Shown in pieces: positions 33,903 to 34,264 of a DNA stretch of 34,434 nucleotides (its first letter is position 1; every line of letters starts with the position of its first letter). Source of the DNA: Escherichia coli (GTDB lineage: Bacteria > Pseudomonadota > Gammaproteobacteria > Enterobacterales > Enterobacteriaceae); the NCBI RefSeq assembly GCF_003334385.1, contig NZ_QOWN01000046.1; one strand, given 5' to 3'. Position numbers and translations under genes: made by a program. The notes below the pieces were generated by a model, which ran no database searches, had not been told where the DNA came from, and was given only the letters and a program-made list of their open reading frames with translations.

Positions 33903-34264
33903 GTTCACAGATAAAATACTCTCCAGGAAACCTGGGGCGGTTCACACTGCTTACACCCTTCAACATGATGCAGGAGAGGTGCGCCTGCAATCCGGGGAAG
34001 GTATAAAAAACAGCCTGTTGCGGTATAAAAATCGACCACGCGGAGAGAGAAACATACCGGGGTGATATGAAAACCGAAGAGTCGCATATGGCATAAGGCG
34101 CGGACTGAGTTATTGTCGTCTAATACTTAGTTTTTCAATTTCCTATACGTCTAGAAATAGAAAATAGTCATTCATCATAACCTTTACCATTTTATTGCTA
34201 TCTTACGTAGTAATAGTAAGCGTAAACCGACCGCCGTATGTAGCCATTAGACAAGAATTGGTAA

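Follow-up and report, generated by a model that had tools for sequence, protein, structure and literature searches.

A spacer between IS629-like and IS2 ends on an Escherichia coli contig is very probably a mosaic of nested IS remnants

The elements that matter for the locus described here belong to well-characterized families. The terminal inverted repeat of the IS66 family begins with 5'-GTAAGCG in ISfinder descriptions, and IS629 usually duplicates 3 bp of its target. IS91 has terIS at its left and a tnpA gene reading towards oriIS at its right; the oriIS end abuts a target tetranucleotide, 5'-CTTG or 5'-GTTC, and no target duplication is generated (PMC13181058). The last 82 bp together with the tetranucleotide suffice as oriIS, and all the functional tetranucleotide motifs that have been reported possess a T at position 2 (PMC13181058). 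Here we compare with these elements a spacer lying between an IS629-like end and an IS2 end in a 34,434-nucleotide stretch of E. coli DNA (contig NZ_QOWN01000046.1 of assembly GCF_003334385.1), the whole of which is hereafter termed the window. The spacer is very probably a non-functional mosaic, built up on an IS-rich virulence plasmid as elements transposed into one another and were partly deleted. It is thus an IS "graveyard" junction of known element families, with an explanation that is ordinary for an E. coli virulence plasmid.

Both limits of the spacer coincide with IS termini. As read from the sequence, the right end of the IS629-like copy (...CCTGGGGCGGTTCA; ...AACCTGGGGCGGTTCA) has its last base at 33944, which is also the last base of homology to annotated IS629/IS1203 copies, while the IS2 terminus (TGGATTTGCCCC...; TGGATTTGCCCCTATATTTCC...) has its first base at 34265, where homology to annotated IS2 copies begins. 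The coordinates and the 320-bp length assigned to the spacer in an earlier note on this DNA are therefore exact. That note saw no ORF of convincing length, and indeed the open frames are of only 36-101 aa, running in from the flanking IS or crossing junctions. Its description of the spacer as AT-rich suits the right half (33% GC) and a 65-bp core (26% GC) but not the left 145 bp (51% GC); the spacer as a whole has 41.9% GC, below both the window (47.8%) and the IS629 copy (53.8%). It had also proposed that the spacer might be left over either from the original insertion target or from a third element, and each of these origins turns out to be partly right: three further IS families account for 255 of the 320 bp (IS1, 22 bp; IS91, 185 bp; IS66, 49 bp; with one base common to the IS1/IS91 joint), and the other 65 bp are a candidate for the target (Table 1). 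The identities of the four pieces, all the junction coordinates and an 8-bp duplication associated with the IS66 piece are direct observations.

The search of plasmid databases proposed in the same note recovered parts of the spacer in many records but the whole of it in none, as far as PLSDB and the complete genomes of E. coli are concerned. A query from 33946 onward (319 bp) was matched in part by many records and over its full length by none; likewise, megablast searches of these two collections with the whole spacer and with its 1.8-kb and 12-kb neighbourhoods returned no record of the whole arrangement. No further IS91, IS66 or spacer sequence is present elsewhere in the window. In two metagenome contigs, OAWT01000360.1 and OAWU01000802.1, the full 320 bp do occur, 100% identical and bordered by the same ends of IS629 and IS2, and hence the spacer cannot be put down to faulty assembly of this record; the two contigs may represent the same strain as the window, and thus count as independent assemblies rather than independent lineages.

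Table 1. Features of the spacer and its borders; positions are those of the window.
Feature	Position	Strand	Description
Left part of IS1 remnant (TACTGGTAC)	32707-32715	+	Far side of the IS629 copy
Defective IS629/IS1203-like copy	32715-33944	+	80-bp internal deletion and aberrant poly-C left terminus
Spacer between IS629 and IS2 ends	33945-34264		320 bp; both borders are ends of IS homology
Internal fragment of divergent IS1-family transposase gene	33945-33966	+	22 nt, sense, encodes ..LLTPFN..
IS91-family right (oriIS) end	33966-34150	+	185 bp; tnpA stop TGA (33966-33968) and 182-bp non-coding terminus ...TTTCCTATACGT
AT-rich core, putative original target DNA	34151-34215	.	65 bp, 26% GC; CTAG at left, TAGTAATA at right
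IS66-family left end (GTAAGCGTAAACCG...)	34216-34264	+	First 49 bp, cut by IS2
Terminal part of IS2	34265-34434	-	Runs off the window end

The IS91-family piece begins, in terms of homology, at the stop codon of genes annotated as "IS91 family transposase" (loci L001, L002, L008, L010 and L011). Its identity is ~85% to the ETEC plasmid loci L001 and L011, and 78-80% to L002 (a UPEC plasmid), L008, L009 (H10407 p666) and L010 (Shigella sonnei pSS_046); the tnpA of the last of these scores 309.5 bits on the NF033538 transpos_IS91 model (cut-off 125). In a seven-way alignment every copy is alike up to ...CCTATACGT (...TTTCAATTTCCTATACGT; ...TACGT) and divergent beyond it. Read on the complementary strand, the next tetranucleotide is CTTG, GTTC, CTTG and GTTC in four of the six loci, GTTA in L001 and L011, which are the same IS91-family insertion, and CTAG in the window (34151-34154), one base removed from CTTG and retaining the T at position 2. 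A private 10-bp insertion (~34116-34125), found in no other compared copy, falls in the loop of a terminal hairpin; inverted-repeat arms lie at 34068-34079 and 34126-34137. A consensus hairpin is common to the copies, with a compensatory change in only one pair, and the folding energy of the oriIS-end DNA was not better than that of shuffled sequences (z = 0.40). There is no IS91-family tnpA anywhere in the window, in which only 33966-34165 match IS91 copies; with its own HUH/Rep-type transposase gene absent, the piece is a remnant and not an autonomous element. On several ETEC plasmids an oriIS end of the same type (L001 3176-3266; L011 2677-2767) lies ~90 bp upstream of a prepilin (type IV pilin) gene, providing another case of IS91-like ends that abut virulence genes.

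To the left of the IS91 end, the 22 nt CACTGCTTACACCCTTCAACAT proved in a short-query search to have 22/22 matches in 693 of the 5,426 E. coli genomes, where they lie under features annotated as "IS1 family transposase", in gene or pseudogene copies of a divergent IS1-family transposase. An ORF carrying the match scores 153.4 bits on NF033558 transpos_IS1 (cut-off 100), and we estimate the probability of a chance match of a 22-mer to the E. coli pan-genome at ~1e-5 to 1e-4. On the far side of the IS629 copy, the flanking bases (...TTTACTGGTAC, to 32715) belong to the same stretch of IS1: when IS629 and one of the 3-bp copies are taken out, TACTGGTAC joined to TGCTTACACCCTTCAACAT matches the IS1 variant of L016/L017 (TACTGGCACTGCTTACACCCTTCAACAT) in 27 of 28 positions. 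TAC at 32713-32715 and CAC at 33945-33947 are the putative left and right copies of the IS629 target duplication, differing by one mismatch. This layout is what a simple IS629 insertion with the usual 3-bp duplication would leave, with the provisos that the duplication is imperfect (TAC versus CAC) and that the first base of IS629 is uncertain, its left terminus being corrupted. In a related plasmid (L012) the same region upstream of the neighbouring gene ends in ...TTTACTGGTACTGC without an IS629 and then diverges; thus, the junction of this upstream region with the IS1-like sequence predates IS629. No IS1 terminal inverted repeats are seen at the borders of the ~28-nt fragment, both of which are inside the coding region. 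Its joint with the IS91 end at 33966 consists of one shared T that is interior to both elements, and would therefore reflect a deletion or an illegitimate joining, not a transposition event. An exact-pattern scan of the GTDB species representatives gave 0 matches to this joint.

The IS629-like copy aligns in two segments, 32719-33103 and 33098-33944, with 94-95% identity to annotated IS3-family/IS1203 copies and 80 bp missing between them. This deletion lies between CCACTG repeats (33098-33103) just after orfA and removes the start of orfB, rendering the copy defective. Its left terminus is a run of 11 consecutive C (32715-32725; GGTACCCCCCCCCCCCGGG) as against TGAACCGCCCC in IS629. Such a poly-C end occurs in 0 of 5,886 matching E. 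coli records, in which homology sets in at 32719-32722; it reflects either mutation to a dead terminus or an error of sequencing or assembly within the homopolymer.

At the opposite end of the spacer, homology to thousands of IS66-family copies starts exactly at 34216, with 34216-34222 reading GTAAGCG. The right end of the spacer is matched in 3,283 of 5,426 E. coli genomes, and most of these matches begin at 34216. The piece is identical (49/49) to the left ends of tnpA-tnpB-tnpC-carrying IS66-family copies (L005 and L006) and ~92% identical to an annotated ISEc23 (L007); the tnpC of L005 scores 444 bits on the IS66 transposase model NF033517. After ...GAATTGGTAA the reference copies read CTTAGACGCC and the window reads the IS2 terminus, and hence IS2 inserted 49 bp inside the IS66 copy. 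In the overlapping contig the IS2 ORF, being truncated, reaches only 549 bits on the IS2 TnpB model (cut-off 597); its score on transpos_IS3 is 186 bits (cut-off 160). Another IS2 copy, a partial one of 615 bp (24339-24953), in the opposite orientation, is 98% identical to the IS2 from 34265; the two are a possible substrate for inverting the ~9-kb segment between them.

The metagenome contig OAWU01000802.1 (L015) shares 592 bp with the window at 100% identity and reaches 8.2 kb past its end. Proceeding rightwards, the IS2 breaks off after 726 bp and gives way to an ISL3-family gene, itself interrupted by an IS4-family element; next come a fragment of an IS66 tnpC, an element of the IS110 family and the right end of IS66, and beyond these a gene for a 277-aa AraC-family regulator (1049-1882 of the contig), the closest solved relatives of which are Rns and CsvR of ETEC (E ~1e-29). 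The tnpA-tnpB-tnpC set, present in the references L005 and L007, is represented by only 49 bp in the window and by only the tnpC fragment in the contig. The octanucleotide TAGTAATA, found at 34208-34215 to the left of the IS66 left end, recurs (8/8) directly to the right of the IS66 right end (...CGCTTAC) in the contig; our control copy, the ISEc23 of L007, similarly has an 8-bp duplication, TAATAAAT, on both sides. From the TAGTAATA duplication it follows that one IS66 copy spans from 34216 to the right end in the contig and that the core is original DNA on its left. The core would accordingly have lain ~50 bp downstream (about 50-115 bp) of the Rns-family regulator gene, a placement that rests on one 8-bp duplication and one contig and that assumes the window replicon to continue as this contig does.

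Searches with the 65-bp core gave no match above noise in PLSDB or the E. coli complete genomes. An exact-pattern scan with a 31-mer from it returned 0 matches in the GTDB species representatives, and the same 31-mer matched just the two metagenome contigs, both with the same arrangement. The core likewise shows no alignment beyond chance with the DNA adjoining other IS91-like copies (shuffle p = 0.16-0.79). Its GC content is 26%, compared to 30% beyond the IS66 copy and 30% in the neighbouring transporter cluster. Among E. coli complete genomes the regulator gene has only distant relatives at the DNA level (75-78% over 77 nt). No IS-free relative with the regulator and its 3' flank was recovered, as a query combining the core with the regulator flank matched only the 77-nt conserved stretch of distant AraC-family genes. 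The regulator is a rare member of the Rns family and lies near a transporter cluster and a pilus operon.

The wider surroundings have the complexion of a virulence plasmid. The minus strand of 1-13000 carries an apparent type IVb pilus cluster, an operon in which an assembly ATPase of the GspE/PilB type (3940-5448) is accompanied by adjacent ORFs; it fits an ETEC-like virulence plasmid. A low-GC (30%) cluster at 27305-32612, also on the minus strand, codes for an Lnt-like acyltransferase (weak TIGR00546 match), a bacteriocin-export-type ABC ATPase, a 122-aa protein whose N-terminus resembles a signal peptide and which matches nothing in Pfam or NCBIfam, and three ORFs without a family match. 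Only four PLSDB plasmids match any part of this cluster, and these partially, at ~90%. Its layout may resemble that of the dispersin-type aatPABCD/cexE export system known from ETEC and EAEC.

Other origins for the spacer or its pieces can be weighed against this mosaic. Plain plasmid backbone between two IS, with the whole 320 bp as one target remnant, would account for the 65-bp core, which has no IS homology and shares the low GC content of the neighbouring virulence genes; however, homology of 255 of the 320 bp to the IS1, IS91 and IS66 families, with sharp boundaries at the element termini, already refutes it for 80% of the spacer, and we give it practically no credence. The leftmost 21 nt initially gave us the impression of a diverged tnpA C-terminus, which was dropped after the exact IS1 match was found. 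If 33945-33966 (the first 21-22 nt) were the diverged 3' end of an IS91 tnpA, IS629 would have cut an IS91 copy and there would be no IS1 piece. The frame leading to the TGA at 33966-33968 does read HCLHPST before the stop, faintly like the ...LLRHIPG of the reference copies, but among the GTDB representatives, 72,556 plasmids and 5,426 E. coli genomes there is no IS91-family copy that has this sequence (...CACTGCTTACACCCTTCAACATGA) beside its stop codon. Moreover, the 22 nt are 100% identical to the IS1 variant, whose sequence resumes on the other side of IS629, making a tnpA origin extremely improbable. As for the core, a derivation from the region upstream of the sta2 (STh) enterotoxin gene of ETEC plasmids was suggested by an alignment of 34161-34204 in 38 of 47 columns to a stretch ~150-200 bp upstream of sta2 (H10407 p948 and other ETEC plasmids), a score reached by 0 of 5,000 shuffles against the 300-bp target. 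The database-wide BLAST E-value of 0.5-2 is, however, level with those of chance matches to Planococcus, Legionella and Bacillus plasmids, and the aligned stretch is outside the part conserved between sta1 and sta2. The core and the sta1 upstream region show no alignment beyond chance (p = 0.47). Further, neither the window nor the contigs that extend it contain an ST gene, and the IS66 target duplication links the core to the 3' flank of the regulator gene, leaving an origin near sta2 as an unlikely, weak lead.

We see no functional element in the spacer. The idea that it encodes a small RNA such as AfaR, or a regulatory signal such as an outward promoter, draws on a weak Rfam match to AfaR (RF02515) on the minus strand of 34208-34262 (E = 0.16) and on one promoter-like site at 33941-33969. 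Yet the AfaR match scores 22.2 bits as against a gathering score of 100 and falls within the IS66 terminal repeat, and the counts of promoters and terminators equal the shuffled expectation; there is next to no chance of such a role. A 13-nt inverted match (11/13 complementary) between the region of the 10-bp insertion (34112-34124) and the IS66 terminal repeat (34246-34258) is probably due to chance in a 320-bp interval. A different kind of activity would be that of the retained IS91 end: as an orphan oriIS it might still serve a related transposase in trans and, through one-ended rolling-circle transposition leftwards, move the DNA on that side. The 185 bp kept exceed the 82 bp that suffice, with the tetranucleotide, for IS91, and the T at position 2 is as in functional motifs (PMC13181058). 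But the unique 10-bp insertion falls within the terminal 82 bp, the CTAG tetranucleotide is non-canonical and no IS91-family tnpA is present in the window, because of which, along with a folding energy no better than that of shuffled sequence, we consider a live oriIS very unlikely. Were it active, the remnant would be a latent mobilization origin for the small secreted-protein gene and the low-GC ABC-transporter/acyltransferase cluster to its left.

Returning to the mosaic, the earlier note had anticipated that the identity of the spacer would help in ordering the insertions, and the identified pieces did yield a relative order. In the scenario that we propose, the base layer would be the AT-rich DNA ~50-115 bp downstream of the Rns-family regulator gene. 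An IS91-family element would have come to lie with CTAG abutting its oriIS end, and an IS66-family element would have entered at TAGTAATA, in either order; the IS66 insertion, 57 bp from the CTAG tetranucleotide and 61 bp from the IS91 end, would have duplicated the octanucleotide. IS2 would then have entered the IS66 copy 49 bp inside it, with ISL3-, IS4- and IS110-family elements and deletions later degrading that copy. On the left, the IS91 copy would have lost everything upstream of its stop codon and, presumably by deletion, become joined with a 1-nt overlap to the internal piece of the IS1 variant, which would already have adjoined the upstream region of the small secreted-protein gene (32244-32612) before this joining. 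IS629 would subsequently have inserted into the 28-nt IS1 piece with a 3-bp duplication (TAC/CAC), and after its insertion would have lost 80 bp between the CCACTG repeats and suffered the corruption of its left terminus.

The spacer is thus resolved into four named pieces, with a relative order for six or more transposition or deletion events, and we infer that the DNA beside the IS629 copy was once the 3' flank of a gene for an Rns-family virulence regulator. This is useful for reconstructing the assembly of a rare virulence plasmid region with a type IVb pilus, a transporter cluster and an Rns-like regulator. It also illustrates that IS fragments of 20-50 bp escape standard searches. Beyond correct annotation the spacer is of little importance.

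Among known systems, the closest parallels are the IS91 right-end remnants near virulence genes on E. coli and Shigella plasmids, which start at the same site 3' of the tnpA stop and end in the same ...TTTCAATTTCCTATACGT; they abut a tetranucleotide without a target duplication, as the window end probably does, and truncated IS91-family copies of this kind are common on ETEC, UPEC and Shigella plasmids. The window piece differs from its nearest relatives in being only 85% identical to them, in its private 10-bp insertion and non-canonical CTAG, and in lacking the transposase gene through a truncation exactly at the stop codon, where it is joined to IS1 sequence. With the divergent IS1-family element, which is found as a pseudogene in the chromosomes of many E. 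coli and, on ETEC plasmids, next to CS6, the locus shares 22/22 nt, or 27/28 once IS629 is discounted; in contrast to that element, the window piece is internal, has neither terminal repeat and probably owes its borders to deletion or illegitimate joining. Finally, it shares with IS66-family elements of the ISEc23/ISEc8 type the GTAAGCG left terminal repeat, 49/49 nt with complete copies and the 8-bp target duplication. Unlike in those elements, just 49 bp are in the window, and the remainder, in OAWU01000802.1, is interrupted by IS2 and ISL3-, IS4- and IS110-family elements, lacks tnpA and tnpB and retains a tnpC fragment 83% identical to that of L005.
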